Assembly (NCBI GenBank): GCA_964390725.1
Contig: CAYMIW010000013.1
Location: 9,086-73,085 of the forward strand
Direction of reading: 5' to 3'
Source of the DNA: an uncultured Syntrophomonadaceae bacterium
GTDB taxonomy: Bacteria; Bacillota; Dethiobacteria; DTU022
Length of the DNA: 64,000 bases
This document shows positions 7,607 to 27,473 of this stretch, in pieces. How positions within the stretch are numbered: the first letter of the stretch is position 1; every line of letters starts with the position of its first letter. A model generated the notes under the pieces. That model was not told the origin of the DNA, made no database searches, and saw only the letters and a list, made by a program, of their open reading frames with translations. The translations under genes and the position numbers were made by a program.

Positions 7607-7607
7607 A

Positions 7608-8624
7608 ATGGCTGAAAGGAAAATAGACAAATTTATTTTGTTTATGATATTTTCTCTATCTATAATACTGTGTTTGATATTTTTATCACTCTTCGTTGGG
7701 CGATTTTATGTATCGCCCAACGAAGTTATATCAGTATTAACATCTAAGTTGTTGAGCAGCTCAGTTGAAGAGATTAGCACAACTGTAGTTTGGGAAATTC
7801 GGTTTCCTCGATTACTATTAGCAATATTAGTGGGTGCTGGATTAGCTGCTTCTGGAGCGGCGTTTCAGGGGTGTTTTTATAATCCATTAGTTAGTCCAGA
7901 TATCCTTGGGGTTAGCTCAGGTGCGGGATTTGGTGCAAGCCTGGGAATATTATTAACAGGGGTATCTACAGGAGTCACAAGTATATTGGCCTTTGCATTT
8001 GGTTTAGTTAGCGTTTTACTTAGTTGGATATTGTCTAAGATGCGTAAAGGGGCTGAAATGCTATCTTTGGTTCTGTCTGGAATTATTGTTTCAGCAGTTT
8101 TTAATGCGCTAATATCTCTGGTGAAGTTAGTAGCTGATACAGATTCTTTGTTACCGGCTATTACTTTCTGGTTAATGGGTAGTTTTTCAGGTGCTACAAT
8201 AGAGACTATTAAATATGTAGCAATCCCAATAATTTTAGGTATTATTGCCTTGCTATTTTTGCGATGGAGAATAAATTTATTAACTCTTGGGGATGAAGAA
8301 GCTAAGTCTTTAGGGACAAACCCTGGGAGAATTCGGCTAGCTGTAATTATTTCTGCTACAGTCATTACTGCAACTTCAGTTATGGCTGCAGGGGTTATTG
8401 GGTGGGTTGGATTAATTGTACCAAACTTGTGCCGCATGATCGTAGGTGATGATTATAGAAGGTTATTACCAGCATCTTGTGTTGTCGGTGCGATTTTTAT
8501 GTTAATAGTAGACTTAGTTGCAAGATCATTAACGGCTGCAGAAATACCAATTGGCATTCTTACTGCTCTTATCGGTGCACCATTTTTTGCGCTAGTTTAT
8601 ATAAGAGGAGGGAAAGCTAGATGA
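7608..8624 (+). CDS. FecCD/BtuC-family ABC permease.
   Basis: 338 aa and polytopic. It has the conserved FecCD motifs (RxPRxLxA near the N-terminus and a glycine-rich C-terminal region). Confidence 0.85.
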   Translation: MAERKIDKFILFMIFSLSIILCLIFLSLFVGRFYVSPNEVISVLTSKLLSSSVEEISTTVVWEIRFPRLLLAILVGAGLAASGAAFQGCFYNPLVSPDILGVSSGAGFGASLGILLTGVSTGVTSILAFAFGLVSVLLSWILSKMRKGAEMLSLVLSGIIVSAVFNALISLVKLVADTDSLLPAITFWLMGSFSGATIETIKYVAIPIILGIIALLFLRWRINLLTLGDEEAKSLGTNPGRIRLAVIISATVITATSVMAAGVIGWVGLIVPNLCRMIVGDDYRRLLPASCVVGAIFMLIVDLVARSLTAAEIPIGILTALIGAPFFALVYIRGGKAR

Positions 8625-9391
8625 GATTATCCGTTCAAAAAGGGACATTTTACTATCACAAAAGTGAGCCTATTTTTACTAATGTTTCTTTTTTGTTAGA
8701 GCAAGGGCGAATTATGACAATATTAGGTTCTAATGGTATTGGGAAAACAACCCTTCTTAAATGTATTATGGGATTTAACAAATGGATATCTGGTAATTGT
8801 TTTGTTGATGATATGGAATTAAAGGAAATTGAAAAAGTTGATGGAATTGGATTTGTTCCGCAAGCTCATAGATCTGTTTTTAGCTTTAGTGTTGAAGAAA
8901 TGGTGTCTTTAGGTTGTGCAAGAAGGGTACCATTATTTGGGGTTCCTATAAAAGAAGATAAAACTAGTGTAAGGAGTGCTTTGCAAACAGTGGGGATTGA
9001 AAAACTATCAAATCGCCTATGCTCTCAACTAAGCGGAGGCCAACTCCAGCTTGTATATATAGCACGTGCGATAGTTAGTGAACCCCAATTAGTTATAATG
9101 GATGAGCCTGAAGCACATTTAGACTTTAAAAATCAATACATGATCCTTAATTTGATTGAAAAATTAAATATCGAAAAGAAAATATCTTTTTTGATCAATA
9201 CTCATTGTCCTGATCATGCTCTAAGAATATCTCATAATGCATTAATTTTAGGGAAAAATGAATATGTTACCGGAAAAGCAGAAGAAATAATTAATGCTAA
9301 TAATATTTTAAGTTATTTTGAAGTGCATACAAAAATATTTAAAATCCCTGGAATAACTAGGCCTGCTGATGCTTTTGTTGTTGTTGATTAA
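8621..9391 (+). CDS. ABC-transporter ATP-binding protein (BtuD/FecE-like).
   Basis: Walker A GSNGIGKTT, signature LSGGQLQ and Walker B VIMDEP. Its start overlaps the permease stop (ATGA). Confidence 0.85.
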   Translation: MRLSVQKGTFYYHKSEPIFTNVSFLLEQGRIMTILGSNGIGKTTLLKCIMGFNKWISGNCFVDDMELKEIEKVDGIGFVPQAHRSVFSFSVEEMVSLGCARRVPLFGVPIKEDKTSVRSALQTVGIEKLSNRLCSQLSGGQLQLVYIARAIVSEPQLVIMDEPEAHLDFKNQYMILNLIEKLNIEKKISFLINTHCPDHALRISHNALILGKNEYVTGKAEEIINANNILSYFEVHTKIFKIPGITRPADAFVVVD

Positions 9392-9410
9392 AGGAAAGGA
9401 GAATTTAAAA

Positions 9411-10409
9411 ATGAAATCTGCAAAAACAATGCCGGAGTATCCTGCTGGTAAAATATTGGGTATAACAAATAATATGCTAGAGGCTCAAATAATATATTCA
9501 GCGTTAGAACTTGAATTGTTTTCGCATATGGAGACTGGAAAAGATATTATTGAATTAAGCCATATGGCTAACTGTGATATAAGAAATTTAGAATTGATTG
9601 TAAAGGCTCTTGTGGCTATTGGTTATTTGAAAAAAGAGACTAATACTTACACAAACTTTCCTGAAATCAATTACTATTTAAATAAAAATAGTGATATGTA
9701 TATTGGTGAGCATATACTTTATTGGCGAGACATGACTAATTTGCATGATTTAACAAATCTCGTAAGACATGGTAGTTCTGCAGAAGGTCAAAACTTAAAT
9801 AATGGTGCAGATTTTTTTGATTTCCGCTCTATGGGAAAGAGTGCTTGTAATGTTATTTATACTGGTAGAGTTCAAAGTTTTATTAGCGCATTAGAAAAAT
9901 TGTTTAGCACTTCCGATGAAATTAACGTTTTGGACATGGGTGGTGGATCAGGAATCTTAGCATTAGAAACGGCTATAGCTTTCCCTAACTCACAGGTTAC
10001 AGTCTTTGATCAAGCAAAAGTAATTCCTATCACCATAGAAAATATTAAAAAATATGGGCTAGATAAAAGAGTCAATACAAAAACAGGGAATTTTGTTACT
10101 GACAACATTGGTAATAATTATGGTCTGATTATAGCAAGTGGTGTTATGGATTTTGCAGGTGATTTAGATCTTATGGCAAAAAAATTACATTCAGCACTAA
10201 ATAAAAAAGGGTATTTAATAGTAACGACTCACGCCATAAATGAGGATTATACTGCTCCTAAGCAGGCAATACTAGGGTGGTTATCATCAAGAATTAATGG
10301 TTTAGATATATTAAAAACAAATAAAATGATTTGTAACACTTTATATAATAATGGATTTCAAAATGTTTTTAGTAATGAAAATGGGTTTCATGGGTTAATA
10401 AAAAAGTAA
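9411..10409 (+). CDS. Class I SAM-dependent O-methyltransferase (family-2 type with N-terminal dimerisation domain).
   Basis: LDMGGGSG motif I. The overall layout resembles small-molecule O-methyltransferases. Its start at MKSAKTM follows the ATPase gene. Confidence 0.6.
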   Translation: MKSAKTMPEYPAGKILGITNNMLEAQIIYSALELELFSHMETGKDIIELSHMANCDIRNLELIVKALVAIGYLKKETNTYTNFPEINYYLNKNSDMYIGEHILYWRDMTNLHDLTNLVRHGSSAEGQNLNNGADFFDFRSMGKSACNVIYTGRVQSFISALEKLFSTSDEINVLDMGGGSGILALETAIAFPNSQVTVFDQAKVIPITIENIKKYGLDKRVNTKTGNFVTDNIGNNYGLIIASGVMDFAGDLDLMAKKLHSALNKKGYLIVTTHAINEDYTAPKQAILGWLSSRINGLDILKTNKMICNTLYNNGFQNVFSNENGFHGLIKK

Positions 10410-12919: not shown

Positions 12920-13030
12920 AGAAACAGGCTATTGTGAAGTTTGCTTGATTGCAAAACCTGACCCCAATATGTTCGGGCTTTGGTAAAGTTTTCATGGTAT
13001 AGTTTAGTCATAACGATTCCTCCACAAAAA

Positions 13031-13600
13031 TCACATGGATTTCAAGTTGTTATTGAGCCTGTCAACGATTTTTTCAAAATCTCTTTGTCGCGCTTCTTCT
13101 GTCTTAAATGAAAAGTATCTCCTTGTGTATGTGCGCCGAACAGACGGCGACATATTATTAAAATTCTCATAAGCCGGAGATATGCCGCAGAGTTTTTCGG
13201 TGAACGATTCAATATGTTCATCGGTTATCGGATTGCCTTTGGGGGCATCCCATGTTCCATTCTTTTTCGCTGTTTCCACGGCGTTCTCACCCAATTCGGT
13301 CATAATGCCTTTTTGCCGCAACACTTCAACCGTTTTCTTGTTCTTTTCAGACCAACTGCTTTTTATGCGGCGTTTCGTAAAATATTTCAAGTATTTGGTG
13401 TTGTCAATGCTCTGCACCCGACCGTCAATCCATCCGAAACAAAGAGCTTCCTCCAAAGCATCGTTAGCAGATAAGGTAACAACTGCTTTCGTCTTTCCGA
13501 ATACGAGCCATACGCCCTCGCTTGTTTCAGAATTGTTCTGTAGCCATGCACGGAAATCCTCGCGGGTTGAAAATAGTAATTCGGTTATATCTACTCTCAT
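13031..13600 (-). CDS. YdeI/OmpD-associated family protein (DUF1801-like).
   Basis: 189 aa with N-terminal FREDFRAWLQNN, a GWIDG motif and a C-terminal RRxYxxxY segment, all typical of this family. Confidence 0.6.
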   Translation of the reverse strand: MRVDITELLFSTREDFRAWLQNNSETSEGVWLVFGKTKAVVTLSANDALEEALCFGWIDGRVQSIDNTKYLKYFTKRRIKSSWSEKNKKTVEVLRQKGIMTELGENAVETAKKNGTWDAPKGNPITDEHIESFTEKLCGISPAYENFNNMSPSVRRTYTRRYFSFKTEEARQRDFEKIVDRLNNNLKSM

Positions 13601-13748
13601 AATTATTTCTCACTTTCGTTTAGGCTGTTAAGGATTTTTCCCATAGTTTGGCCAAAAGAACCAGCTGTAGTGCCATTCCTCTTGCTTTCATCCACTATGT
13701 TAACCATAGCACAGGTTCGTTTATAGATAGCAAGTTAGACATGGCTTG

Positions 13749-16454
13749 TCATAGATCTCCTCTATCCATAATTTCTACAAACGCTCTGACCACCAGAGGA
13801 TCATATTTCCACCCGGCACAAGCTTTAATTTCTTCAATTGCTTCTTCTTTGCTAAGCTTAGCAATACTATACTTGTTAGTTCTAAAATCATAGCATTCGG
13901 CAACAGCAATAATCCGTGCTGTTATTGATATCTCTTCTTCTTTTAAACCTTTTGGATAACCCGTTCCATCCCAGTGTTCGTGGTGCTGTAGCGCCCCTCC
14001 GGCTACATCCATAGTGTCGTTAAAGAGATTAAGGATCCTGTAACCTGCAGTTGCATGTTTTTTCATCTCGAGCCGTTCATCTTCATCTAATCGACCAACT
14101 TTTTTCAATATATCATCATTAAGAATCACTTTCCCAATATCATGATAATAACCAGCATCTTTAATTCTCCGCACCTCTTCAGCAGGTAAACCAAGTTGTA
14201 ATGCAATTTTTCCACTTAGTTTACTAACATTCTGGGCGTGTAATTTTTCTCTTTCAGACTTAAAATGCAGGGAATTCACAATGCGCTTCAGCTGCTGATT
14301 ACTGTAATCCTTATACAGAATGCTCTTATTAATGTACATCGCTTCTTCTGCATCTTTAAAAAGCACCGCAAAGTCATCGCTTGTCTTTAATTTGGTTGCT
14401 CTACCCAAAGCTATGCTTCCCTTTATTGCTTTGTATCCAACCTTTTCAACATTATCTTGAATCCGTTTTGCCGTAGCATCTGCATCCTCAGCTCCTGTCC
14501 GCGGCAGAAGGATTAAAAACTCATCTCCGCCGATCCTGGCGCTAATATCATCTGCCCGGCAGGTTTTTTTTATCGCTGCGCTAATCTTCTTCAGCAATAT
14601 ATCTCCTACTTCATGCCCAAAAATATCATTGGTTAATTTTAATCCATTTATGTCGCCAACAATAATGCTAAAAGGAAGGTTCCTTTCAACATCTAGACGA
14701 TTTAGCTCTTCATATACGAATGACCGGTTATAGAGCCCGGTTACCGAATCATGGTAGGAGAGATATTTAACTCTATCTTCCACTTGTTTTCTTTCAGTGA
14801 TATCGAGAAAGGTTACCACACCACCGACAACTTCTCCATTTTTGATCTGGGGATATGAATGGTATTCAACATCAATAAATGTTCCGTCTGCTTTCCAGAA
14901 CACTTCATCATCAACATCTACACCCCTACCCCTATTAATTGCCCTGATGATTTTACAATCATCTAACATTATCATTGTTCCGTCACGGCGACTGTGATGT
15001 ATTTGGTCATGCATATTTTTTCCAAGCAATTCATCCTGGCTTTGATAACCAAGCAACTTCACGCAGCTTATATTACAAAATTTACTAATACCATCCAAAT
15101 CAACACCATATATCCCTTCAGCTGTTGAATCCAGGATCAACTGCAGATGATCTTTGTTATCCTCCAGGGCTGCATTAGCTTTATGTAAATCCTTGGTTCT
15201 TTCTTCAACGCTTGCTTCCAGGTTGTTGATCAGAAATTGCATTTTAGTGGCAATGTTATTGACGCTTTCTGATATAATCCCTATTTCATCTTTTCTGATA
15301 ACCTCTACCCGCTTTGACAAGTCTCCCGAGGATATCTCTTCGGAAGTCTGTAGCAAGTTTTTCATCGGCCGGAGGAATTTGCCGATGATTACATAATATA
15401 GAATGATTGAAAATATAAGAGCTATGACAACAAGGATGGCAGTCAGGCGGATGCTTTGAATAACGTTAATCAAATAAAGACTTTCCGGTATGGCTGAAAT
15501 AACCACCCAATCGATCCCGGAAGCTTTAATTTCCCTTATGGCAACAAATAGTTTCTCCTCTTCACCCTCAAAAATACTGTAAGAACCATTTGTCTGAAAG
15601 TGATTTTCATAAGCCTGCCGGATATCATTGTTAACAAGATCTCTAATGCTATAACGGTCTAAATTACCGTCCTCAAGAAGAGCAAAATTTTTCTCTCCCA
15701 TTGAATTAGCCACTAGTGCTCCTGTATCTTTCTCAACGATAACGGCATACCCATTGTACTCGCGCGTTGCATCTTCCAGAACTGTTCCGATGCCCGAGAG
15801 AAGCATGTGTGTTCCAATTACTCCCTGTAGTTCGCCTGCGCTATTGTAAACCGGCCTTGCAGACGATACTGTTAAGTCATCCATTATAAAATGCTTATAT
15901 ATAGGTGAAAAGATGGGCCCGTCGGTCTCAACTGCAGCCTGAAACCAAGCGCGGGTGCGGGGATCAAATAATCCAGCCTGCACAACAAGCTCCCCGGCAG
16001 TTAAGTCCTCCTTCACCGCATAATACCAGGAATTGCCGTCGGTTTCTGTATTATTTCTCATGATTTCAATAATGTTATCACTATTCCGACGCGCCCCGTA
16101 GTATTCACCATTTACTGTGCCAAAGCTAAAACTATAGACCTCATCTTCTTGCGCCTGGAGAACGCCAACAAAAAACTTCTCCCGGACCACTTCATCCGAC
16201 AGATTGAGAATGCCGTTTTCTATAATCTTATGATTGACTTCGTTGATATGTTCGGGGACATGGATTAAAGTAACTACTTGATCATAAATATTATTGCTTA
16301 TGCTTTTGGCGATCTGTTCGGTTGTTTCTTCGGCAGTTGTCCGCCATCTGTTAAAAACAAGTGATCCAATACCAAGAGTCATAGTTAACATGATAAGTAC
16401 AAACATGATGATAATAATCCCTTTAATCGGAATAATTCCGATCGGATTTTTCAT
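13749..16454 (-). CDS. Sensor protein with dCache, HAMP, PAS, GGDEF and HD-GYP domains (dual c-di-GMP synthase and phosphodiesterase).
   Basis: 901 aa. Domains in N-to-C order are a TM, a periplasmic Cache-like region, a second TM, HAMP, PAS, a GGDEF domain with RIGGDEF, and a C-terminal HD-GYP (YYHDIGK ... HHEHWDGTGYP). Confidence 0.85.
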   Translation of the reverse strand: MKNPIGIIPIKGIIIIMFVLIMLTMTLGIGSLVFNRWRTTAEETTEQIAKSISNNIYDQVVTLIHVPEHINEVNHKIIENGILNLSDEVVREKFFVGVLQAQEDEVYSFSFGTVNGEYYGARRNSDNIIEIMRNNTETDGNSWYYAVKEDLTAGELVVQAGLFDPRTRAWFQAAVETDGPIFSPIYKHFIMDDLTVSSARPVYNSAGELQGVIGTHMLLSGIGTVLEDATREYNGYAVIVEKDTGALVANSMGEKNFALLEDGNLDRYSIRDLVNNDIRQAYENHFQTNGSYSIFEGEEEKLFVAIREIKASGIDWVVISAIPESLYLINVIQSIRLTAILVVIALIFSIILYYVIIGKFLRPMKNLLQTSEEISSGDLSKRVEVIRKDEIGIISESVNNIATKMQFLINNLEASVEERTKDLHKANAALEDNKDHLQLILDSTAEGIYGVDLDGISKFCNISCVKLLGYQSQDELLGKNMHDQIHHSRRDGTMIMLDDCKIIRAINRGRGVDVDDEVFWKADGTFIDVEYHSYPQIKNGEVVGGVVTFLDITERKQVEDRVKYLSYHDSVTGLYNRSFVYEELNRLDVERNLPFSIIVGDINGLKLTNDIFGHEVGDILLKKISAAIKKTCRADDISARIGGDEFLILLPRTGAEDADATAKRIQDNVEKVGYKAIKGSIALGRATKLKTSDDFAVLFKDAEEAMYINKSILYKDYSNQQLKRIVNSLHFKSEREKLHAQNVSKLSGKIALQLGLPAEEVRRIKDAGYYHDIGKVILNDDILKKVGRLDEDERLEMKKHATAGYRILNLFNDTMDVAGGALQHHEHWDGTGYPKGLKEEEISITARIIAVAECYDFRTNKYSIAKLSKEEAIEEIKACAGWKYDPLVVRAFVEIMDRGDL

Positions 16455-16667
16455 TTTTTATCCTGCCTTATTATTTTTATGAACTCTTAGCAGCTTCATT
16501 TTGTGAATCATAAATATTATAACACTTGCTTAAACTTTAATCTAAATACTTTGGTTTTTCCTGTATATTCACCGTTTTGGCTCAACATCCCGCATATTCA
16601 TTCGGAATTAAAGCGGCTTGCTTAAAAGCATTGTTTCACCAACCATTCTTCTACTTCATAAAAAAAT

Positions 16668-16697
16668 AATGGCCATGAAAACAATGGCCATTATCAA
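16668..16697. terminator. Perfect palindromic hairpin (ATAATGGCCAT-N7-ATGGCCATTAT), a possible bidirectional terminator.
   Basis: 11-bp perfect arms. It lies in the 690-bp gap between the FmdE-like gene end and the GGDEF gene start. No clear U-tract follows. Confidence 0.3.
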
Positions 16698-17144
16698 AAT
16701 ACAGCTTCAAAATTAAAGAAGCCGGGGCATGCAATATTGCATTTATTGCTTAATCTTACGCACCGCCCTGCTAACTGAGGCATAGTGAAGACCTAAAAGC
16801 TCGGCAACAATGCTCAGAGCAAAGTTTTCCAACCTCATTTACTTCATTATGCCGCGCACAATCTGCAGATCTTCTGGCGTTGCGTCCCATTTAATCTATG
16901 GTTTTCGACCAAGAAGAATTGCATCAAATACAGTCATGTTTAACGATTTATTATCCTGATCTACATATGTCAGAGAGCCTCTGGCCATACTGATTACCAT
17001 AACCACTCAGGTGTTAACACCTAAACTCCTTGTCGTATCAGACCCGTTTCCCATTGCATTGTAATTCCAGCGGTTAAACATAAAAATATCAGGGTTGCGA
17101 AAAAATTATTGCAACGTATGCATGTCCGAAAAAAAATAGCTTTT

Positions 17145-18134
17145 TTATTTGTTTTGCTTTGCAGCACACACCTGGCAGCATAAGCCCTTATACCCGGGTA
17201 CGCATTTTTTTAAGTCAACAATTTCATTACAGATTGAGCATTTGCTGTAATGAGTGCAGCCCTGAAAACGGGGTGGGTGTATACTGACGATTGTTTTTTT
17301 AAAAAGCTGTTCATCGCTTAAATCTAAAATTTCATGAACGGCATTGTTGACAGCTATGCTATATTCTTCAATTTCAGTCTGCGAGGCTTTGCCTGAGGCA
17401 ATTCGTTGATCTATATCAACGGCACTGTCAATGATGAGAGCCTCGTCGTTAATGAGACTCAAACGCAAAACATTCACCGGCAGGTATCCTTCACCGGAGA
17501 GGCCAAAGTAGTATACCTGCTTACCCAGATCATAGGCAAAGAAATTCTGGTTGCCAATGGTACAGCCTGTCATAAGCTGAACAGCCTCAATTCCTGAACC
17601 CATGTTTTCCGCCAACGCGAACTGTGTGGAGGTTTTTTCCCGATCAAAACCCAGTTCGATACAGGCCAGAACCGAGGCCCGATAACCGACCGCAAGCTCT
17701 GGACAAACATGACCGTGATAGTGAGCCAGATTGGCAAGCTCCGCTGGTAATAATGAATAGTTGCCGACCGCATTCAGGTTGCCTTTACTCAATAACTGCG
17801 ATACTCTATTATATAGAGGTCCACTTTCTATGTTATGAAGATACTCTCCATTTACTTTGTACTTCAACAGCCACCTGCCCTGATTTAGGTCTTGCTGCCC
17901 TTTCATAAACTCAAAAGCCAGACAGTAGATACCTGTTGATGTTAGTACTAAATACTGTGGATTTTCTTCAATACTCTTAAATTTGTGCAGTAGCTTTAAA
18001 ACTTCATAGTGTTCACCACGCCATTTGAAACCGAGCGGAAGATTTTGTGAGCTGTCATACTGCACCAGCACCAGTTGCTGTATAAACTGAACATCTTCTT
18101 GTTCTATTTTTTTCATTAACTGTTTAATATTCAA
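17145..18134 (-). CDS. FmdE/FwdE-domain protein with an N-terminal extension and a C-terminal Cys4 zinc ribbon.
   Basis: HYHGHVCPELAVGYRA is the hallmark FmdE motif. The C-terminus has CSICNE...CCQVCAAKQ cysteine pairs. About 120 N-terminal residues have no recognised family. Confidence 0.6.
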   Translation of the reverse strand: MNIKQLMKKIEQEDVQFIQQLVLVQYDSSQNLPLGFKWRGEHYEVLKLLHKFKSIEENPQYLVLTSTGIYCLAFEFMKGQQDLNQGRWLLKYKVNGEYLHNIESGPLYNRVSQLLSKGNLNAVGNYSLLPAELANLAHYHGHVCPELAVGYRASVLACIELGFDREKTSTQFALAENMGSGIEAVQLMTGCTIGNQNFFAYDLGKQVYYFGLSGEGYLPVNVLRLSLINDEALIIDSAVDIDQRIASGKASQTEIEEYSIAVNNAVHEILDLSDEQLFKKTIVSIHPPRFQGCTHYSKCSICNEIVDLKKCVPGYKGLCCQVCAAKQNK

Positions 18135-18254
18135 TTTCTTGGACCCCTGTCCGGTAATTATGTCAGCCTTAAAATCAGGACATTCGTCAAATTAATAGTA
18201 GCACAAATAAATATAATGTGCTACTATTAATTAAATGATATAACTGCCGTATTT

Positions 18255-19619
18255 TTATAGTCTGCGGATCTGATCAGCCAGATACTGCAGTTTTTTTCTT
18301 CTCACAGAATTAATGCAGCAAAGAAACTGGCGGAACTTTTCGTGCCATTCTTTTTCGTGTTCTGGAAAATAATCGTATACTTCCGTACAGTCTTGGGTGG
18401 GCAGCCGCTGAATCAGAAAAGCCAAAACCGTATCGTCCAGCGTATGAAATAGTTCGGTGTATTCATCATCAAAGAGGCAGCAGGCACCAAGCAAATCAAC
18501 CAGATCGGAGATACTACAAACTTCCTGTTGTATAATAGTTAATTTATCTGAGACAAACCGGCAGCTTCTGATTTCCTCCGTCAGGATCCGAAATGCTTCA
18601 TTGGTTAACATCTGGCCTTCCGAAAACTCTAAGATTTCGGAAGTGCCCTCTTGGTTAAAGCTAATAAACAGCTTGGCTAAATCGTATTCTTTCAAACCTA
18701 TATTTAGCCGTGCAGTTATATCCTGAGCAGTTATCTCAATATAATTTTGCATGAAGGAGTCTTTTACACAAAAATACCTGCATAGAACTCCGGTAGCATC
18801 CTTTAGATGATTGCCCAGTTTATTCTGGTGAAGGTTGGCTAACTGTTGCTTAATTTTTTCAATGTCTGTTTGATCAATCATAAGCTGACACAGATCTTTT
18901 TTTGCCAAAGTAGAGCCAACCAGGTTTGTGATCACAATTGCAAATATATTGATAAGCAAGCCTTCATAGTGTTCATGATAACCCTGAAGTAAGCGGTGCA
19001 GGTCTTGTGCCAAAAATTTTTTGCAGAACTCATTTTCCAACCAAAGCTTGTGCAGGTAATCTTCAATATATTCAACGCCTGTCAGAAGCATTTGATCATG
19101 GCTTAATGGATAATCAATACCTGCCGGGATATCGTGAGCGGCATATTCAAGGTCATAAGACGAAAAGAATAGCGGCAGGCCATTGTCAATGGTATCATTA
19201 TAAGCCTCAACTTTCGTTTGCAGTCTGTTTTCCTGAATGGCTATAAGCTTTTTTTCTGATAGACCTACTTTTTCTTTCAGAAGCACTTTACCTTTTTCGT
19301 ATAATGTTTTCAGTTTCTCTTCCTTAACCAGAGCAAGACAGGCATCTTTGTTTGCTGAATTTTTTAGTGTTAACCCGATTGTGTAAAAAATGGATTGCAG
19401 TAATCCCTGGGCTTTTTCAACAGGCAGTGAACTGCTGGCACCACCCGTTAACTGCTCTGTCAGTTCAGATAATAATTGAAGACTTTGCACCTGCACCCCT
19501 GACAATACATCATCTGAAATCATATTTTTGTGGTAAGCTTCTTCAAGCAGTGACTGGAAGAAATGCGCCGGATCCAAGCTTTCTATTTTAATGCTTTGTT
19601 TTACCAGTTTACTCATCAT
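18255..19619 (-). CDS. Hypothetical protein (about 454 aa, soluble). Its start overlaps the stop of the upstream gene.
   Basis: A long ORF. Its MMSKL start lies in ATGATGAGTAA, which contains the TAA of the 174-aa upstream ORF. No motifs were recognised. Confidence 0.5.
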   Translation of the reverse strand: MMSKLVKQSIKIESLDPAHFFQSLLEEAYHKNMISDDVLSGVQVQSLQLLSELTEQLTGGASSSLPVEKAQGLLQSIFYTIGLTLKNSANKDACLALVKEEKLKTLYEKGKVLLKEKVGLSEKKLIAIQENRLQTKVEAYNDTIDNGLPLFFSSYDLEYAAHDIPAGIDYPLSHDQMLLTGVEYIEDYLHKLWLENEFCKKFLAQDLHRLLQGYHEHYEGLLINIFAIVITNLVGSTLAKKDLCQLMIDQTDIEKIKQQLANLHQNKLGNHLKDATGVLCRYFCVKDSFMQNYIEITAQDITARLNIGLKEYDLAKLFISFNQEGTSEILEFSEGQMLTNEAFRILTEEIRSCRFVSDKLTIIQQEVCSISDLVDLLGACCLFDDEYTELFHTLDDTVLAFLIQRLPTQDCTEVYDYFPEHEKEWHEKFRQFLCCINSVRRKKLQYLADQIRRL

Positions 19620-20097
19620 AATCCTCCCCGGCATCATATTCTTCTTCAGCTTCACCAGAACAATACATGCCAAAACGAATGCTGCGTGCCAGGGTTTCCA
19701 GTTCACGGTTCTGTAGCAACTCAATTGACCCCTGGCAGTTATGATCAAAATAGTCTTTCATTAAGGACAACAGTTCATCATCACCGATTTCATCGAGCAT
19801 TTCATTTTTAAAGTAGTAGAATGTCTCTAATAAATCGAACAGGTTTTCAGCATAGTTGTCTTTAAAAAGGAAGGGAGAATTGCAGAAGGTCAGGATCAGC
19901 TTTTGAATAATGCCTCCGGTAAACTCAACGCGCCCGTGACGGAGCAGTGTTTCGGTTTGTGCCTCCACAAGTTGACGAGCTTCTTTTGCTGTCAAATCTA
20001 AGCCATAATAACATGTAACATCATTGCATTTGATAATTTCATCAACCGTCAGCTTTTGCCGCATCATTGCAGGATTGAATAAAACAAGCTGATTCAT
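19609..20097 (-). CDS. Hypothetical protein (about 162 aa) with an acidic C-terminal tail.
   Basis: Start MNQLVLFNPAMM preceded by AGGAGG 7 nt upstream. The C-terminus reads SGEAEEEYDAGEDYDE. It is the first gene of a three-gene operon. Confidence 0.5.
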   Translation of the reverse strand: MNQLVLFNPAMMRQKLTVDEIIKCNDVTCYYGLDLTAKEARQLVEAQTETLLRHGRVEFTGGIIQKLILTFCNSPFLFKDNYAENLFDLLETFYYFKNEMLDEIGDDELLSLMKDYFDHNCQGSIELLQNRELETLARSIRFGMYCSGEAEEEYDAGEDYDE

Positions 20098-20126
20098 TTT
20101 TAACCTCCTGATTTTTATGCAGGATA

Positions 20127-20155
20127 TTGACAAACGAACTTATATATGATATGAT
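20127..20155 (+). promoter_or_regulatory. Near-consensus sigma-A promoter facing away from the three-gene operon, into a 480-bp ORF-free region.
   Basis: TTGACA, a 17-nt spacer, then TATGAT (ttgacaaacgaacttatatatgatatgat). Confidence 0.35.
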
Positions 20156-20197
20156 AGCATTGAGGGAGTATATTAGTTATCCTATAACGCCACCTTC

Positions 20198-20232
20198 CAT
20201 ATTAGCATTGATTGTTTAAGCAGTCAATGTGT
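20198..20232 (-). promoter_or_regulatory. Candidate promoter of the three-gene operon.
   Basis: On the minus strand: TTGACT, a 17-nt spacer, then TAATAT. It lies about 100 nt upstream of the 20097 start. Confidence 0.3.
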
Positions 20233-20630
20233 TTTTGGTTTTTCAAAAATTAATGTCTGCACAGCGATAACTGCCCCGGGGGCGGAAATGTTATCAGATT
20301 ACCCTGTTAAAATACATGGATATAGTCATCTATGAAGTATACTCTGAGCCTCATTGGCATCATGAATACTCACTGCCTGTGGCCAATTATAATGGCAAGA
20401 GACCTATTAAGTTGACTCAAGTGAATCTATTAACGAGTATCCCTACCGAACTTGTCTGGGATGTTAGGGTTAAGCCTTATCCCTTGTAGTACAGATCCAC
20501 TCTGCAAAATGTCACAAAATAAAACAAGCGTCTTCCGCTCAAAACGGAAACCGCTTTTTTTATGCATTTTCAGATAAAATTATACCACCTGCTGACAAAA
20601 TACTCTTTTATCAATAGATGGTAGTTGAAT

Positions 20631-20984
20631 TGGTGGAGGCGGCGGGAATCGAACCCGCGTCCGAAGGCCCAGCAACAGAAGCATCTACAAGCTTAGTTCC
20701 GGCTTTGTGTGTCGCGCCTCCGGCTCCCCGGAACAGGATCCTTCAGCGCCAGCTCCGTTAATTTTCCCGCATAAGAGGTGGAGCGACCGCTTAAACAGTA
20801 GGCCGGATTAGTGACACCCCTGATCTTTCCCCCGGCCGGGGAAAGGAGGGATGCGCTACTTTAGATTAAGCAGCGAGTGCGTAATTCGGTTTGGCGTTTA
20901 TAGCCTTTCCATGTTTTTAACCAGGTCATGGTCCTGGACCTGCAGCTTCTGTCTCAAAAACCCCCGTCGAATCCTAACGCCCCC
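20631..20984 (-). ncRNA. ssrA: tmRNA (SsrA).
   Basis: The minus strand begins GGGGGCGTTAGGATTCGACGGGG and ends GCGGGTTCGATTCCCGCCGCCTCCACCA. These are the canonical tmRNA 5-prime end and the tRNA-like 3-prime end. smpB lies immediately upstream. Confidence 0.85.
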
Positions 20985-20997
20985 AAACTTTAATTAA

Positions 20998-21456
20998 TCA
21001 TTCACCACGTTGTCTTTCGCGAAACGCTCTTTCCATTTCGCGCTTGCTGTCATGTTCGGCAATATCCCGCCGTTTGTCATACAGTTTTTTACCACGGGCC
21101 AATCCCAGCTCAAGCTTAACCAGTCCTTTTGTTAAATATATCTTCAGCGGAATCAGGGCATAACCTTTTTCGGTTATTTTACCGTACAATCTCGATATTT
21201 CAATTTTATGCATCAAGAGCTTGCGTACCCGCAGAGGATCATGGTTAAAACGGTTACCCTGTTCATACGGGCTTATATGCATATTATACAGGTACATCTC
21301 TCCATTTTCAATGCGGGCATAGCTGTCTTTCAGGTTAACCCGGGCATTGCGGACTGACTTCACCTCGGTACCTTTAAGCACAATACCTGCTTCATAGGTT
21401 TCCTCTACATGGTAGTCATGCCGCGCCTTGCGGTTGGTGCTGATAATCTTTTCCAC
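20998..21456 (-). CDS. smpB: SsrA-binding protein SmpB.
   Basis: 152 aa. [34 protein letters not shown] is the canonical SmpB N-terminus. Confidence 0.9.
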
Positions 21457-21479
21457 TTTAGTATCTCCAGTTATATAGT

Positions 21480-22046
21480 TTACAGCTTAAATGGATTGCC
21501 CCATTTGTTTTTGAATACAATTTCCTCTATTTCCATGCGGGGCCGCTTCGAAGATACTGTTTCGGGTATACCAAGCGGTGTCAGGGCTACAACCCTGTAT
21601 TCGGAAGGCACACCACAGGCGGTACGAACAGTTTCTTCGTCAAAAAACCCTACCCAACAGGTACCTAAACCTTCTGCATGGGCGGCCAGCATCAACTGTT
21701 GCATGGTAATTCCGGCATCAAGCATGTAAAAATCTTTGCCATCTTTATCTCCGGAAGCCTGGGGATCTGCACAAAGCACGATCACAAGCGGAGCTGTTTC
21801 AGTAACAGCACGGCGGGCAGGGTTGCTCTCGGGCATACATGCCGATATAGCTTCCCTCTGTTCCTTTTCACTGACCACAATGAACCTCCAGCACTGCTGG
21901 TTCTTCCATGACGGTGCTACCCGGGCAGCTTCAAGAACAAGCTTCAATTTATCCTCCGGGACAGGATCCGTTTTATACTTTCGTACGCTACGCCTCTCAT
22001 TTAATGCTTCATAAGTATCCACTGAGTAACCTCCTTTAAAATACAA
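21480..22046 (-). CDS. Nitroreductase-family protein.
   Basis: 188 aa. [11 protein letters not shown]...[12 protein letters not shown] is the nitroreductase-fold signature. Confidence 0.8.
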
Positions 22047-22052
22047 ATTTAT

Positions 22053-24203
22053 CTAAGCATCTGTTTCTGGAACAAATGTTACCTGACCTTCTTCCCGGTT
22101 GGCCCTGATTACCTTAACTTTAACTTCATCTCCCAGTTTATAACGTTTACCACTCCGCTCACCGGTCAGCGAAGCCGCCCGCTCATTGTATACATAATAA
22201 TCATCTTTCAGCTCATTAACCGGTATCATACCCTCAATTGTATTATCAAGTTCAACAAATAACCCGAAACCAGCTACCCCGCTCACTATACCAGTATATG
22301 TTTCACCGATTTTTTCCTCCATGAATTGTGCTTTTTTCATTTCAATACTGGCTCTTTCGGCTTCAACCGCTGCTCTTTCCCGCTCGGAAGAGTGACGGGC
22401 AATATCGGGAAAGCGCGAGTGGAGCTTCTTGATTTTCTCCCTGGTTAATCCACTGCCTCTTAATTTTTCCTTTAAAATCCGGTGAACTACCAGGTCAGGA
22501 TATCGTCTGATCGGCGAAGTAAAGTGGCAGTAACAAGCGGAAGCAAGACCGAAATGCCCTTCATTTTCAGCACTGTACAAAGCCTGGGGAAGTGAACGCA
22601 GCACCAGGTAACGTATTAGCTTCTCAGTTTTTTCTCCCTTTGTCTGATCAAGCAAACTATTCAAATGTTTTGGCTTGAGCACCTTAATATTTGATAATGA
22701 TCCTATGCCCATCAAGGTCAGGGTTTCCCGCAGGAGAGCTAGTTTTTCCTCGGTTGGCAGGGCATGTACCCTGTATACACAGGGAAGTTTTCGTTTATAT
22801 AAATGTTCAGCAACAGCTTCATTGCAATAAATCATAAACTCTTCGATAAGCGATTCAGAGCGCCCCATAACTCTCTTTCCTACTGCTATCGGAACTCCTT
22901 CCGCATCTATTTCGATCTTAGTTTCCGGCATATCAAGATCAAGGGCACCACGCTTCATTCTGCGTTTGCGAAGTATTTCAGCAAGCTCAGACATACTATC
23001 TATCACTTGAGGCAGATCTTTGTTAGTAAAAGTTTTTTTAACATCGGCACCGTTAAAATATGCCTCAACCTGCTGGTATGTAAGCCGTTCAGTAACCTTG
23101 ATCACGCTGGCTGAAAACTTAGCGTCCACAAGCTCGCCCTGACGGTCAATATCCATAATAACGCTCACTGCCAGTCGGTCCTTGTCGGCCTGCAAACTAC
23201 AAAGATTTTCCGACAGCCGGGGCGGCAGCATATGGATAACCCTGTCAACCAGGTATATGCTGGTCCCCCGTTTGAAAGCTTCACGATCAATTGGCTTGCC
23301 CTGTCTCACGTAATGCGACACATCGGCAATATGCACACCCAGAGTGTAGATACCGTTTTTTTCTTCCAGAGATACTGCATCGTCAAAATCGCGAGCTGAT
23401 TCATCATCGATAGTAACCATGCGGGTTTCCCTTAAATCTAATCGGTCGTCTTCTTTCACTGCCTGGGCTATTGAGTCTTCACCGGGCAGATCTTCAACAA
23501 ATTTAATTACTGCCGGTGGAAATTCGCCGGGCAGCTCATAGCGATGTTTAAAGGTTAGCATCTCTGCCCCGGCACTTCCGGCCCGACCCAGGTGCTCCAC
23601 AACCCGACCCCGGGAAGGGCGGTTACCCTGGGACCATTTTTCTATTTCCACTATTACCTTGTCCCCCGGACGCGCTTTTTTCAAATCATCTGAAGAAACC
23701 TGCACCGGAGAAGGCATGCGGTTATCATCGGGTTCTACAAACAATCTTTTTTTCTCCTTTTTCAGGGTCCCTACTACACGACTGCTGCCCCGCTTGATAA
23801 TCCCTATAACCGTGCCTTCACGCCGGCGGCTACCTCTCTTATCATCAATTCGTACAACTACCCGGTCGCCGTGAGCTGCACTATTGAGGTTTCTCGAATT
23901 TATGTAGATATCTTCCGATCGTGCATCAGGTTTTAGAAAAGCAAAGCCTCTTTTATTACCCTGCAGCACTCCCGTTATATAACCAAGACGGTCAGGTAAA
24001 CCAAATCGACCCCTGGCTGTTTTTACAACCAAGCCCTCATTTTCCATTCTTTTTAAACTGCCAAGAAGCAGGGCTTTATCCTGGCGGTTTATTCTCAGGG
24101 CTCCAAGAATCTGCTCAGGAGTTAGTGACTTTTGCCGCCCCTCTTCCAGGAGACGCAGCACTTTATCGCGCAGGGGATTAACAAGATTTTTTTTCTCACT
24201 CAT
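22053..24203 (-). CDS. rnr: Ribonuclease R.
   Basis: 716 aa with an RNB catalytic core and a C-terminal S1 domain. It sits in the conserved secG-rnr-smpB-ssrA arrangement. Confidence 0.9.
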   Translation of the reverse strand: MSEKKNLVNPLRDKVLRLLEEGRQKSLTPEQILGALRINRQDKALLLGSLKRMENEGLVVKTARGRFGLPDRLGYITGVLQGNKRGFAFLKPDARSEDIYINSRNLNSAAHGDRVVVRIDDKRGSRRREGTVIGIIKRGSSRVVGTLKKEKKRLFVEPDDNRMPSPVQVSSDDLKKARPGDKVIVEIEKWSQGNRPSRGRVVEHLGRAGSAGAEMLTFKHRYELPGEFPPAVIKFVEDLPGEDSIAQAVKEDDRLDLRETRMVTIDDESARDFDDAVSLEEKNGIYTLGVHIADVSHYVRQGKPIDREAFKRGTSIYLVDRVIHMLPPRLSENLCSLQADKDRLAVSVIMDIDRQGELVDAKFSASVIKVTERLTYQQVEAYFNGADVKKTFTNKDLPQVIDSMSELAEILRKRRMKRGALDLDMPETKIEIDAEGVPIAVGKRVMGRSESLIEEFMIYCNEAVAEHLYKRKLPCVYRVHALPTEEKLALLRETLTLMGIGSLSNIKVLKPKHLNSLLDQTKGEKTEKLIRYLVLRSLPQALYSAENEGHFGLASACYCHFTSPIRRYPDLVVHRILKEKLRGSGLTREKIKKLHSRFPDIARHSSERERAAVEAERASIEMKKAQFMEEKIGETYTGIVSGVAGFGLFVELDNTIEGMIPVNELKDDYYVYNERAASLTGERSGKRYKLGDEVKVKVIRANREEGQVTFVPETDA

Positions 24204-24330
24204 TTTTTGGCATCTCCTTAAACTATCAAATACAGTCGATTGTTATGCCGGACTAATACTTTGGTAAATTAATAAAAAAGCAGGGGACTGTGCATTCCCC
24301 TGCCATTATACCATTGAAACCTTTAGGTCG

Positions 24331-24579
24331 TTAACTCAGAACAACCATAACAATTGTCAGAGCCATGAAAGCTATGGCAATGTAAGTGGTAACTTTGCCC
24401 AGCTTGTCGTCCAGTCCCTTTTTTTTGCCAACCAGCGATTGAGCTCCACCAGCAATGGCTCCAAGACCGGCGCTGCGTCCCGATTGCAACAGGACAATGG
24501 CAATTAAGGCCAGGCACATGATAAGATAAATAATATTTACAACAAGTCCGATCATTATTAAATACCTCCAGTAATTCAT
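24331..24579 (-). CDS. secG: Preprotein translocase subunit SecG.
   Basis: Small two-TM protein with a glycine-rich loop (LLQSGRSAGLGAIAGGAQSL). The true start may be the internal Met (MIGLV...). Confidence 0.75.
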   Translation of the reverse strand: MNYWRYLIMIGLVVNIIYLIMCLALIAIVLLQSGRSAGLGAIAGGAQSLVGKKKGLDDKLGKVTTYIAIAFMALTIVMVVLS

Positions 24580-24638
24580 CAGTTGAAGCTGAGCAAACGA
24601 TATTTTACCACATTTTCGCTAATAACACAAATGCCGAA

Positions 24639-25922
24639 CTAAATATTAAGCATGTTTTTTAAATTTTTCCCTCCGTAAATAGCACCCTTACCCAGCTCTT
24701 CTTCAATGCGCAGTAGCTGGTTATATTTGGCTACCCTGTCAACACGGGAAGGAGCACCTGTTTTGATCATACCGGCGCCCGTGGCCACGGCAAAGTCGGC
24801 TATAAAACTGTCGTCCGTTTCGCCTGAACGGTGAGAAACCATACAGCTGTAACCAGCGCCGGCACCCATTGCCATTGTTTCCAGGGTTTCACTGAGCGAA
24901 CCAATCTGGTTAAGCTTGATCAAAATGGAATTGGCTATACCCGAACTGATACCCCGGCTTAAGCGTCGGGGATTTGTTACAAATAAGTCATCGCCAATTA
25001 TTTTCAGCTTATTTCCTGCTGCTTTTGTAAACTCTGCCCAGCCGTCCCAGTCTTCTTCATCATGACTATCTTCAATACTAATCAGCGGAAAACGCCGGGC
25101 CAGGTTGAGATAATAGTTATTAAGTTCAGCAGATGTATATGCCCGACCTTCCAGGTGATAAGCTCCGTCCCGATAAAACTCGCTGGCTGCAGCGTCCAGG
25201 GCCAGGCATACTTCTTCTCCCGGTTTGTAACCTGCCACTCCAATTGCCTCGACTATAGCTTCCAATGCAGCTTCACTTGATTCAAGGTTGGGAGCAAAAC
25301 CACCTTCATCACCCACGTTGGTGTTTAGACCGCGTGACTTTAAAATACCCTTCAATTTATGAAACACCTCAGTACCCATGCGCAGTGCTTCTCTGAAACT
25401 ATCAGCCCCTAGGGGGACAATCATAAATTCCTGGATATCCATATTGTTATCGGCATGACTCCCTCCATTCAAGATATTCATGAATGGAACAGGCATTAAT
25501 ACCGCTTTTATTCCGCCAATATAGCGATAAAGTGGCAGACCGAGCATTATTGAAGCAGCACGGGCTGCCGCCATTGAAACTGCCAGTATGGCGTTGGCGC
25601 CAAGCTTCGATTTGTTTTCTGTACCGTCGATTTCGATCATGGTGCGATCAATTTCTTCCTGGTTGAGCACGTTCATTCCGCATAATTCCGGAGCAAGGAT
25701 ATCATTCACATTCTTAACAGCCGTAAGGACTCCTTTACCGAGGTAGCGGTTCTTATCACCATCGCGAAGCTCAACTGCTTCAAAAGCTCCGGTTGAGGCC
25801 CCGGAAGGCACAGCAGCCCGTGCTGTCCATCCGCCCTGCAAAAAAAGATCAACTTCAATGGTCGGGTTACCACGTGAATCAAGAATTTCTCTTGCCTTAA
25901 TATCCTGAATCATTTCTTCCAT
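24639..25922 (-). CDS. eno: Enolase.
   Basis: 427 aa. ...[18 protein letters not shown]... plus the conserved enolase C-terminal motifs. Confidence 0.95.
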
Positions 25923-25937
25923 GTAAATCTCCTCCTG

Positions 25938-27473
25938 TTACTTTTCCGCTTTCAGCATACTCTTTCCGGTCATCTCTGGTGGAATAGGAAGACCGGCCAG
26001 TTCAAGCACTGTTGGGGCAATATCCGCTAAAACACCCTGTGAGCGAACATTTACATTTCCTGCTCCAAGCAGGATAAATGGAACCGGATTAGAGCTGTGT
26101 GCAGTCAGGGTTTCACCGTTGCCATTTAACATTTCCTCGGCATTACCATGATCGGCACATATAATTACCGCCCACTGCCGGGGCAGTGCTTCCTTTATAA
26201 TATCGCCCACGGCCCTGTCAACAGTTTCGACAGCTTTAACTGCAGCATCCTGGTTTCCTGTATGACCAACCATATCGGCATTGGCAAAATTGGCAACAAT
26301 CAGTGGGTGTTTACCTGCTTTAATGGATTCAGTTATTTTTTCGGCAACTTCGGGCGCACTCATCTCCGGCTGCAGATCATAAGTAGCTACTTTTGGCGAA
26401 GGAACCAGGATGCGATCTTCTCCGGGAAAAGGTTTTTCCCGCCCCCCGCTGAAGAAAAAGGTTACATGGGCATATTTTTCTGTTTCGGCTATGCGTACCT
26501 GGGGCAAATTGTTTTCGGCATATGTTTCACCAAGGGTATGCTTGAGATCATCGAGCGTAAAGGCAACCGGCAGATCAAATTCCCGATCATATTTGGTCAT
26601 GGTAACATAATACGGCTTAACCGGATCATTGCCCCGCTTAAATTCATTAAAGCTTTGATCAGTCAGGGCGCGGGTAATCTGGCGTGCACGATCAGGTCTA
26701 AAATTAAAGAATATAACACTGTCTTCATTTTTTATTGTTGCCAGCGGTTTGCCTTTGTCATCAACAATTACCGTTGGTTTGACAAACTCGTCACCTTCTT
26801 CGCGTTCATAGGCCTGATCAAGCGCGTCAAGCGAGTTCAAAGCGGTTAACCCTTCACCCCTGGTATAAGCGCGATAAGCCTTTTCAACCCTGTCCCAGCG
26901 TTTATCCCTGTCCATGGCATAATACCGGCCACAAACCGTTGCCACATAACCGTTATTGTGCTCTGCTGAAAATTCGGCCAGTTTTTCCAGGTAAGGCCGC
27001 GCCCCAAAAGGTATCGTATCACGGCCATCGAGAATGGCATGAACGTAATACTTTTTCACACCCTGCTGTTCAGCCATGTTCAACAAAGCCATGAGGTGAT
27101 TCAGGTGACTGTGAACACCGCCATCCGACACCAGTCCAACCATATGTAAAACCCCACCCTGTAGTTTAGCTTTTTTCATAGCTGTTATTAATACAGGGTT
27201 TTCATAGAATTGACCGGTTTCAATCGCCTTGCTGATCCTGGTTAATTCCTGGTAAACAACCCTGCCTGCGCCAAGATTAAGGTGCCCAACCTCAGAATTA
27301 CCCATCTGGGCGGGAGGCAGACCAACCGCTTCACCAGAAGCATTGAGGCGGGCTCGCGGATATTCTCTGCTGAGCTTGTCCATGTTAGGGGTAGAGGCCT
27401 GCATTATAGCATTGCCCTCTTTTTTATCGCTTTCGCCCCAGCCATCAAGGATTAAAAGAAGGACTTTTTTCAA
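25938..27473 (-). CDS. gpmI: 2,3-bisphosphoglycerate-independent phosphoglycerate mutase.
   Basis: 511 aa with the N-terminus MKKVLLLILDGWG. Confidence 0.95.
   Translation of the reverse strand: MKKVLLLILDGWGESDKKEGNAIMQASTPNMDKLSREYPRARLNASGEAVGLPPAQMGNSEVGHLNLGAGRVVYQELTRISKAIETGQFYENPVLITAMKKAKLQGGVLHMVGLVSDGGVHSHLNHLMALLNMAEQQGVKKYYVHAILDGRDTIPFGARPYLEKLAEFSAEHNNGYVATVCGRYYAMDRDKRWDRVEKAYRAYTRGEGLTALNSLDALDQAYEREEGDEFVKPTVIVDDKGKPLATIKNEDSVIFFNFRPDRARQITRALTDQSFNEFKRGNDPVKPYYVTMTKYDREFDLPVAFTLDDLKHTLGETYAENNLPQVRIAETEKYAHVTFFFSGGREKPFPGEDRILVPSPKVATYDLQPEMSAPEVAEKITESIKAGKHPLIVANFANADMVGHTGNQDAAVKAVETVDRAVGDIIKEALPRQWAVIICADHGNAEEMLNGNGETLTAHSSNPVPFILLGAGNVNVRSQGVLADIAPTVLELAGLPIPPEMTGKSMLKAEK

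Follow-up and report, generated by a model that had tools for sequence, protein, structure and literature searches.

In the FmdE family, only 13 of 208 members are encoded in formylmethanofuran dehydrogenase operons, and regulatory or RNA-binding roles have been suggested for the forms that carry zinc fingers (PMC2954224). The metal site of the Desulfitobacterium hafniense member B8FYU2 (Protein Data Bank, PDB, entry 2GLZ) is made up of His15, His17, Cys19 and Cys55 (PMC2954224). As for the Pfam families DUF6323 and DUF6179, our literature search found no paper mentioning either of them. Here we have analyzed a locus at which members of all three families lie side by side, on a stretch of 64,000 nucleotides (nt) of contig CAYMIW010000013.1 from an uncultured Syntrophomonadaceae bacterium (hereafter the window). 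Three genes follow one another on the minus strand: gene 1, an open reading frame (ORF) with a ribosome-binding site encoding a DUF6323 protein of 162 amino acids (20097..19609); gene 2, encoding a DUF6179 protein of 454 amino acids (19619..18255); and gene 3, encoding a long-form FmdE-family protein of 329 amino acids (18134..17145), here termed FmdE-long. A previous reading made from the letters of this DNA (the sequence-only reading) had joined the three into one operon. We conclude instead, with a probability of about 70%, that they make up two independent units, DUF6323-DUF6179 and FmdE-long, which are adjacent only in this lineage.

For comparison, 80 genome loci were fetched, each encoding a DUF6179 relative of 27-47% identity, from Desulfosporosinus, Clostridium, Dethiobacter, Thermincola, Pseudobacteroides, Herbinix, Oscillospiraceae, Halanaerobiales and other taxa. 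In 77 of them the gene directly before DUF6179, on the same strand, encodes DUF6323, and the remaining three start at a contig end. Wherever the sequence permits the test, the two genes adjoin or overlap; they are obligate partners, with a link as firm as genome comparison can establish. An FmdE protein, searched for by tblastn and with an FmdE-long profile hidden Markov model (HMM), was encoded in none of the 80 loci, and neither DUF6323 nor DUF6179 was detected by tblastn or profile HMMs in any of 30 FmdE-long loci. Since the triad occurs in 0/80 and 0/30 loci, the genes are better described as two independent units than as an operon. The sequence-only reading had called for a survey of gene neighborhoods and had named a lack of co-conservation as the result that would speak against a common system; the triad indeed proved not to be co-conserved. 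All-against-all clustering of flanking ORFs at the 80 loci revealed no third partner for the pair, the most frequent family being a HAD-like hydrolase present in 15/80.

Genes 2 and 3 are separated by exactly 120 nt (18254..18135), and this gap contains a perfect 16-bp palindrome, AATTAATAGTAGCACA-N11-TGTGCTACTATTAATT (18190..18232, minus strand), recognized by folding and by comparison with an orthologue. The folding energy of the intergenic RNA is -31.7 kcal/mol (z = -3.9), a value that none of the shuffled sequences attains. The FmdE orthologue with 79% identity (locus L085) sits in a different neighborhood, where the preceding gene is GyrI-like, yet has the same upstream feature in the form of a homologous perfect 17-bp palindrome (at about 7950-7990 of L085). 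The outer stem shows compensatory changes in both arms, AATAGTAGCAC/GTGCTACTATT in the window having become AATGGTAGCAC/GTGCTACCATT in L085. Because it is kept in L085 with a different upstream gene, the palindrome belongs to the FmdE unit, for which it probably acts as a hairpin insulating against upstream transcription, or as an operator. Direct reading of the sequence also gives an extended -10 candidate, TGACATAAT, after the palindrome (18165-18157). Unit 1 then spans about 20227 to 18255 (minus strand), and unit 2 about 18232 to 17145.

Several elementary claims of the sequence-only reading were borne out. Gene 1 has an ATG start, preceded at 8 nt by AGGAGG, and its product ends in the polyacidic tail EAEEEYDAGEDYDE; its last codons, GAT TAT GAT GAG TAA, run into the ATG ATG AGT AAA of gene 2, giving the 11-nt overlap ATGATGAGTAA, which couples their translation in the window. 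The 120-bp gap before gene 3, likewise, is as had been described. The 454 residues of the gene 2 product are counted from the first ATG, public gene calls taking the second one and arriving at 453, and gene 3 starts with TTG; identical proteins of 162, 453 and 329 amino acids are present in public databases. In the 329-residue protein the FmdE core HYHGHVCPELAVGYRA (residues 138-153) and the four C-terminal cysteines are in place, whereas the supposed 120-residue N-domain resolves, in the alignment, into a conserved domain of about 100 residues and a variable linker of about 35. The statement that the 454-residue protein has no recognizable motifs was wrong, both upstream proteins matching Pfam DUF families: gene 1 matches DUF6323 (PF19848) with 160.3 bits (cut-off 30.6, E=2e-47) over profile positions 1-125 of 127, gene 2 matches DUF6179 (PF19677) with 288.2 bits (cut-off 25, E=7e-86) over the full 1-272 of 272, and gene 3 matches FmdE (PF02663) with 74.1 bits (cut-off 22.9) over residues 140-279. 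The profile checks that had been recommended thus gave a Pfam assignment for each protein, and PDB matches for the FmdE protein only (2GLZ and 2GVI), none being informative for the pair. That all three lack an established function still holds: a NCBIfam scan of the three proteins gave nothing significant, PADLOC models gave no match to any of them even at E<=1, PHROGs gave only chance-level matches for DUF6179 (best E=0.045) and none for DUF6323 or the FmdE protein, and there were no papers. All three proteins are new members of catalogued, uncharacterized families, and the locus shows no new mechanism.

The genes lie next to the transfer-messenger RNA (tmRNA) gene ssrA (20631-20984, minus strand; ARAGORN and Rfam), upstream of which are found smpB, a nitroreductase gene and rnr. 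The sequence-only reading had seen added weight in this position as a common integration hotspot. That remark receives partial, unforeseen support, in that a block of complete identity starts 72 nt inside the 3' end of the tmRNA gene: contig L082 (ERZ27252296 k141_87467) is 100.0% identical to the window between 9145, where the fetched locus ends, and 20702, and from 20703 onward the two share 76-85% identity (about 82%) through smpB, nitroreductase, rnr, secG and eno. It is weakened by the lack of an integrase and of an attachment-site repeat: no Phage_integrase-type ORF is present among the annotated ORFs in the 20.7 kb downstream of ssrA, and the 25-nt 3' end of ssrA occurs as a single copy in the 64-kb window, with up to 3 mismatches allowed and without a direct repeat. 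Among the 80 DUF6179 loci SmpB, whose gene usually adjoins ssrA, was found in only one (ssrA itself was not scanned for there). Four metagenome contigs, from this lineage or a sister one, show the same gene 1-2-3 arrangement. These comparisons suggest that a block at least 11.5 kb long, and by contig bookkeeping perhaps about 30 kb, was recently exchanged and ends on one side within ssrA; the position beside ssrA most likely reflects this block and not a functional link among the three genes.

It could also be that the identical block ending inside ssrA is a metagenome assembly chimera, a doubtful explanation but one to be weighed. The tmRNA gene is conserved and holds exact runs, including one of 107 nt, and contigs L081, L082 and L084 were assembled from related samples within a single study, as a chimera would have it. 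The exact run, however, reaches only 72 nt into the tmRNA gene, so that a chimera formed at k=141 would further require 68 nt or more of the downstream non-coding sequence to be identical; moreover, L084, a contig from another sample, ends exactly at 20702 and spans 11.5 kb of the block without a further break. Downstream of ssrA, G+C content is 38-42% (13000-20500), against 43-48% in the smpB-rnr-eno region (20500-26000), and the only mobile-element-like gene seen there encodes a 211-residue protein (1679-2314, plus strand) with HTH_28, HTH_29 and HTH_23 domains as in transposase N-termini.

The DUF6323-DUF6179 pair belongs to a large family, with 2,724 matches at E<=1e-3 and 1,459 at E<=1e-30 in a profile search of 1.84 billion cluster representatives. 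DUF6323 homologues (96 clusters) are all single-domain proteins of about 165 residues, and natural DUF6323-DUF6179 fusions of about 595 residues exist in at least three independent protein clusters (P0084, P0271 and P0307). Both proteins are soluble and strongly acidic, the median isoelectric point (pI) being 4.3 for DUF6323 and 4.9 for DUF6179 with net charges of -17 and -21, and neither has a convincing membrane segment. AlphaFold2 models are all-helical, with seven helices for DUF6323 (mean predicted local distance difference test score, pLDDT, 84) and an entirely helical fold for DUF6179 (pLDDT 88). The last 15 residues of DUF6323 (148-162 in the model, pLDDT <50) form a disordered tail that is about 40% acidic, contains several aromatics and usually ends in E-[DE]-[YW]-[DY]-E. 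A profile search against PDB sequences gave no match for DUF6179 and chance-level ones for DUF6323 (best E=0.14), and a Foldseek comparison of the pair proteins with viral structures returned nothing. Two kinds of weak match were examined and rejected: EF-hand_7 in DUF6323, seen in 7/35 members, whose loops fall short of the required length and do not have Gly and Glu where the canonical motif does, and MgtE_N and DUF6178 for DUF6179, each in just one or two members.

Across 33 diverse members, DUF6179 keeps S64, K86, T143, Y155, D169, Y170, E195, N224, D372 and E386 invariant and S62, S63, E68, Y140, E183 and N196 nearly so, the conserved polar features comprising a GGxSSS loop, K86, YNDT, a D-Y-P loop, E195-N196 and N224. 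Since invariant polar residues of this kind are seen more typically in a ligand-binding or catalytic pocket than in a scaffold, DUF6179 would be the one to supply such a pocket. DUF6323, which is the more conserved of the two among relatives (about 60% identity versus about 43%) and bears the acidic and aromatic tail, would then be a small partner or regulatory subunit, and the two proteins would associate in a cytoplasmic hetero-complex. We tentatively picture the pair as a two-subunit enzyme or ligand-binding complex of unrecognized function, with a helical fold new to solved structures, near-ubiquitous in Clostridia, and controlled by a promoter-interference or antisense-RNA switch that employs a near-consensus, outward-facing sigma-A promoter; this composite picture is possible rather than probable.

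A serious rival, though an unlikely one in our estimate, is that the pair is a non-enzymatic acidic binding or decoy complex, that is, a chaperone, mimic or regulator of a basic partner such as a nucleic-acid-binding protein, RNA polymerase or the ribosome machinery. Such a role would agree with the extreme negative charge of both proteins, with the conservation of the acidic/aromatic C-terminal tail and with the higher conservation of DUF6323 than of DUF6179, which fits docking onto conserved machinery, as well as with the presence of sigma-A consensus promoters in the module. It accounts less readily for the invariant polar set of DUF6179, which is unusually large and typical of a pocket or active site, and no partner gene is linked to the pair. 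DUF6323 and DUF6179 represent thousands of sequence clusters; they always occur as a pair and only in anaerobic Firmicutes, among them Clostridium botulinum and C. sporogenes, and they offer a clear target for structural and genetic work.

Upstream of gene 1, a promoter scan yields two predicted sigma-A-type promoters. The sense promoter P1 (20199..20227, minus strand) reads TTGACT-17-TAATAT with a TG and lies about 100 nt upstream of the gene 1 ATG. The second, P2 (20127..20155, plus strand), is near-consensus (TTGACA-17-TATGAT, an 11/12 match, plus an upstream TG); it is directed away from gene 1 and precedes the ATG of that gene by 29 nt. A terminator-like hairpin followed by a T-run (20205..20240, plus strand; also a scan match) overlaps the -35 element and spacer of P1. 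No Rfam match to a riboswitch or other known RNA was obtained directly upstream of gene 1. In the gene 1 leader (20104-20124, minus strand), UCCUG (20124-20120) is able to pair with CAGGA (20110-20106) of the Shine-Dalgarno region, which may be a small hairpin masking the ribosome-binding site; CCUU/AAGG pairings comparable to it are visible at other loci.

The same arrangement recurs in other genomes. An equivalent of P1, ATTGAC-17-TGnTAnAnT, is present at most Desulfosporosinus, Clostridium and Herbinix-type loci, and a forward promoter score of at least 11 was reached at 36/76 loci versus 0.8% of shuffles. Most loci also carry, upstream of DUF6323, the motif CTATAnCACAAA-N11-13-TGTCAA, whose reverse complement comes close to a perfect sigma-A promoter and includes the TRTG extension of Gram-positive bacteria (TTGACA, 17 nt, TGTGnTATAGT). 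Counted over the roughly 110 nt preceding DUF6323, on the opposite strand, P2 scores at least 10 in 69/76 loci and at least 11 in 55/76; the latter score is attained by 0.8% of shuffles and by 2.8% of 142 other genes in the same loci, all with a co-directional upstream neighbor. At loci of the window type P1 and P2 face each other, and their predicted transcripts overlap by about 30-45 nt, whereas in a second group (many uncultured Bacillota, Oscillospiraceae and Aminipila) the sense promoter is placed back-to-back with P2. A hairpin followed by a U-run lies within 150 nt of the P2 start at 51 of the 69 loci, versus 12% of shuffles, so that the predicted P2 RNAs would measure about 35-45 nt or 70-85 nt, the latter size applying to the window. 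At many window-type loci the P2 hairpin is an inverted repeat, CCATTGA..TCAATGG, overlapping P1; the median RNA length for this form is 78 nt, and at two loci the hairpin contains G-U wobble pairs that are valid on the P2 strand only.

One may suppose that P2, by opposing the sense promoter, adjusts how strongly genes 1 and 2 are expressed, either by transcriptional interference or by means of a short antisense RNA. Because the body of the P2 RNA is not conserved between locus types, we favor an effect in cis, by promoter interference or by a short antisense RNA. This conserved promoter architecture of DUF6323-DUF6179 may be undescribed; the papers searched name neither family. In any case, a conserved outward-facing consensus promoter provides a concrete and testable handle on the regulation of the pair.

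The product of gene 3 consists of an N-domain (residues 1-100), a linker (about 100-135), the FmdE core (140-279) and a C-terminal CxxC-N17-CxxC, and has relatives of 320-339 residues in 43 homologue clusters. In an alignment of 35 homologues, H140, H142, C144, S180, C191, C299, C302, C320 and C323 are invariant, as are I18, D27, P33, L34, F36, W38, E44, V45, G68, L72, W88 and L90 of the N-domain. The FHGHxC motif of the family is kept as Y139-H140-G141-H142-V143-C144 (YHGHVC), in which H140, H142 and C144, aligned to His15, His17 and Cys19 of 2GLZ, would provide three of the four Zn/Ni ligands. At the position of the fourth (Cys55 in 2GLZ, Cys61 in 2GVI) FmdE-long has the invariant Ser180, encoded near 17595-17597; an invariant Cys191, within a TGCT motif, is encoded near 17562-17564, and the dimer-interface motif is retained as E183, Q186 and T192. 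Judging from the alignment, FmdE-long, with Ser at the fourth-ligand position, is a distinct FmdE subfamily. DUF6504 (PF20114) gives a weak match to residues 17-55 of gene 3 (18.8 bits, below the 24.2 cut-off), and sub-threshold matches of this kind occur in 16/35 FmdE-long members (best E=9.5e-5). Downstream of the gene, the 690 nt from the FmdE stop to a GGDEF/HD-GYP gene (16455-17144) are without a called gene and include a terminator-like hairpin at 16695-16665 (minus strand).

Neighborhoods were examined for ten diverse FmdE-long homologues. Transporter genes recur in them: ATP-binding cassette (ABC) systems of the FecCD/Peripla_BP_2 type at L085, L088 and L115, with BtuF-type genes among these neighbors, ZnuA/ABC-3 at L089, L090 and L116, SBP_bac_5 transporters of the Opp-Nik type at L090, L091, L116 and L118, and CbiM/CbiQ at L089 and L118. 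CobW (L088), CbiA-like ATPases, flavin reductases, S-adenosylmethionine methyltransferases and short FmdE-zinc-finger paralogues are further neighbors, and a Pfam census of 140 flanking ORFs from 23 FmdE-long loci agrees with these neighborhoods. No fmd/fwd catalytic genes lie within 8 kb of gene 3, nor in the annotated homologous loci. FmdE-long could therefore be viewed, if its neighbors are a guide, as an accessory protein that handles metal (Zn, Ni or Co) or corrinoid and serves such systems in the manner of a chaperone or sensor. The recurrent link with Zn, Ni, Co and corrinoid uptake points bacterial FmdE-like proteins to metal trafficking and away from methanogenesis.

In the window itself, two FecCD-type transporters controlled by cobalamin riboswitches, a methyltransferase and MntP are located 7-16 kb away from gene 3. 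Genes related to metals and corrinoids abound downstream of ssrA, the features in question (two cobalamin riboswitches, FecCD/Peripla_BP_2 ABC transporters and MntP) lying at 1274-1451 (minus strand), 5777-5959, 6443-10409 and 2621-3181 (all plus strand). One of the riboswitch-controlled transporter sets carries an O-methyltransferase gene, and the same gene set adjoins FmdE-long in L088; just beyond the start of the window (L119, 1-8519) there are nitrogenase-like Oxidored_nitro and NifH-like genes. Genes for selenocysteine tRNA (tRNA-Sec) adjoin FmdE-long at several metagenome loci (L098, 3501-3591 and 2027-2116; L101, 5657-5746; L102, 8497-8589; all on the minus strand), one copy lying directly upstream of, and divergent from, the FmdE-long gene in both L098 and L101. 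A supposed antiterminator copy upstream of some FmdE genes was rejected, as it is this divergent tRNA-Sec gene.

Upstream of FmdE-long genes, Rfam identified no known RNA directly adjacent, cobalamin riboswitches being merely nearby. GTA(A/G)CAC(G)AA and CC-ACGAA-GG hairpin motifs are enriched in these regions (among them those of L088, L091, L093, L095, L096-L102, L106 and L116), and a post hoc k-mer test finds CACGAA in 10/16 FmdE-long upstream regions versus a background of 4.4% (p=1.6e-10) and GTAACA in 7/16. One could take this to mean that FmdE-long is a metal-sensing, nucleic-acid-binding regulator whose target would be the palindrome or the GTA(A/G)CAC(G)AA repeats that precede its own gene, all the more as compensatory changes have preserved the palindrome, some loci have small covarying hairpins whose loop is ACGAA and zinc-finger forms of the family have been proposed to regulate or to bind RNA (PMC2954224). 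We nevertheless regard such a regulator as quite unlikely. The CACGAA enrichment was replicated in just one of four additional loci and remains a lead, CACGAA is absent from the palindrome of the window, a number of the hairpins may be plain terminators of upstream genes, and Pfam-type profile scans detected no DNA- or RNA-binding domain in FmdE-long.

Still less is to be said for DUF6323-DUF6179 being a mobile accessory cassette on an ssrA-linked island, a defence or toxin-antitoxin-like pair in which the small acidic gene 1 product would neutralize the larger product of gene 2. An overlapping two-gene operon with the small gene first, neighbors that differ between genomes and an inverted repeat, CCATTGAC-N11-GTCAATGG, overlapping the sense promoter at many loci are all features that such a cassette might display, and the window copy is inside a block that is 100% identical between diverged lineages. 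In addition, neither pair protein has an orthologue at about 80% identity in public data (the next-best relatives are at 62% for gene 1 and 47% for gene 2), unlike FmdE, for which orthologues at 76-81% exist. Against this, no integrase or transposase is linked to the pair in the 80 loci, there are no PADLOC or PHROGs matches, DUF6323 is without a DNA-binding domain and has a pI of 4.3, and there are natural fusions of the two, an arrangement that would be lethal were they toxin and antitoxin. The family rather resembles a conserved lineage gene, close relatives coming from related genera, and we consider a mobile cassette very unlikely.

Some observations count against the account of two independent units and their proposed roles, and should be set beside it. 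In the window's own lineage genes 2 and 3 are on the same strand and only 120 nt apart, and because the palindrome has no strong U-tract, partial read-through co-transcription from gene 2 into gene 3 may occur. P2 is a prediction made at the level of sequence, and the RNA predicted from it is not conserved between locus types. The idea of a complex with a pocket draws solely on conservation patterns, gene coupling and gene fusion. Finally, the association of FmdE with transporters is recurrent and not universal, L117 and the window being without an adjacent transporter. Even so, that the three genes form one operon whose products act jointly in a new pathway is extremely unlikely, for the shared strand, the 120-nt gap, the intergenic hairpin without a strong U-tract and the arrangement shared by four metagenome contigs from this or a sister lineage are to be set against the missing triad elsewhere, a 79% FmdE orthologue that keeps the upstream palindrome in another location, and the fact that the four contigs are essentially one DNA block, 100% identical where compared.

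Returning to two independent units, each can be compared with what has been described before. With respect to the Pfam families DUF6323 and DUF6179, the window copies match at full length and in the same two-gene order as nearly all members, and nothing sets them apart. The block downstream of ssrA resembles ssrA-integrated genomic islands in having its identity breakpoint within the 3' end of ssrA and a 100%-identical stretch downstream, and differs from them in that the window has no integrase among the downstream ORFs and no repeat of the ssrA 3' end. Gene 3 shares its Pfam domain with the FmdE/FwdE subunit of methanogens, but its host is a bacterial Firmicute and its neighbors are metal and corrinoid uptake genes. 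With the structural-genomics proteins 2GLZ and Q9HJ63 of Thermoplasma (2GVI) it shares the FHGHxC-type motif and the second motif (E183/Q186/T192), and its C-terminal Cys4 sequence pattern recalls the treble-clef finger forms; what distinguishes it is the additional conserved N-domain of about 100 residues with its linker, and Ser180 at the place of the fourth ligand. As for the promoters of the pair, switches made of convergent, face-to-face promoters are known, an example being pR/pL of coliphage 186. The pair loci differ from that system in being without phage context and in including a second set with P2 back-to-back, whereas the window-type loci would be analogous to it, a strong and a weaker sigma-70-type promoter facing each other with predicted starts about 30-45 bp apart.

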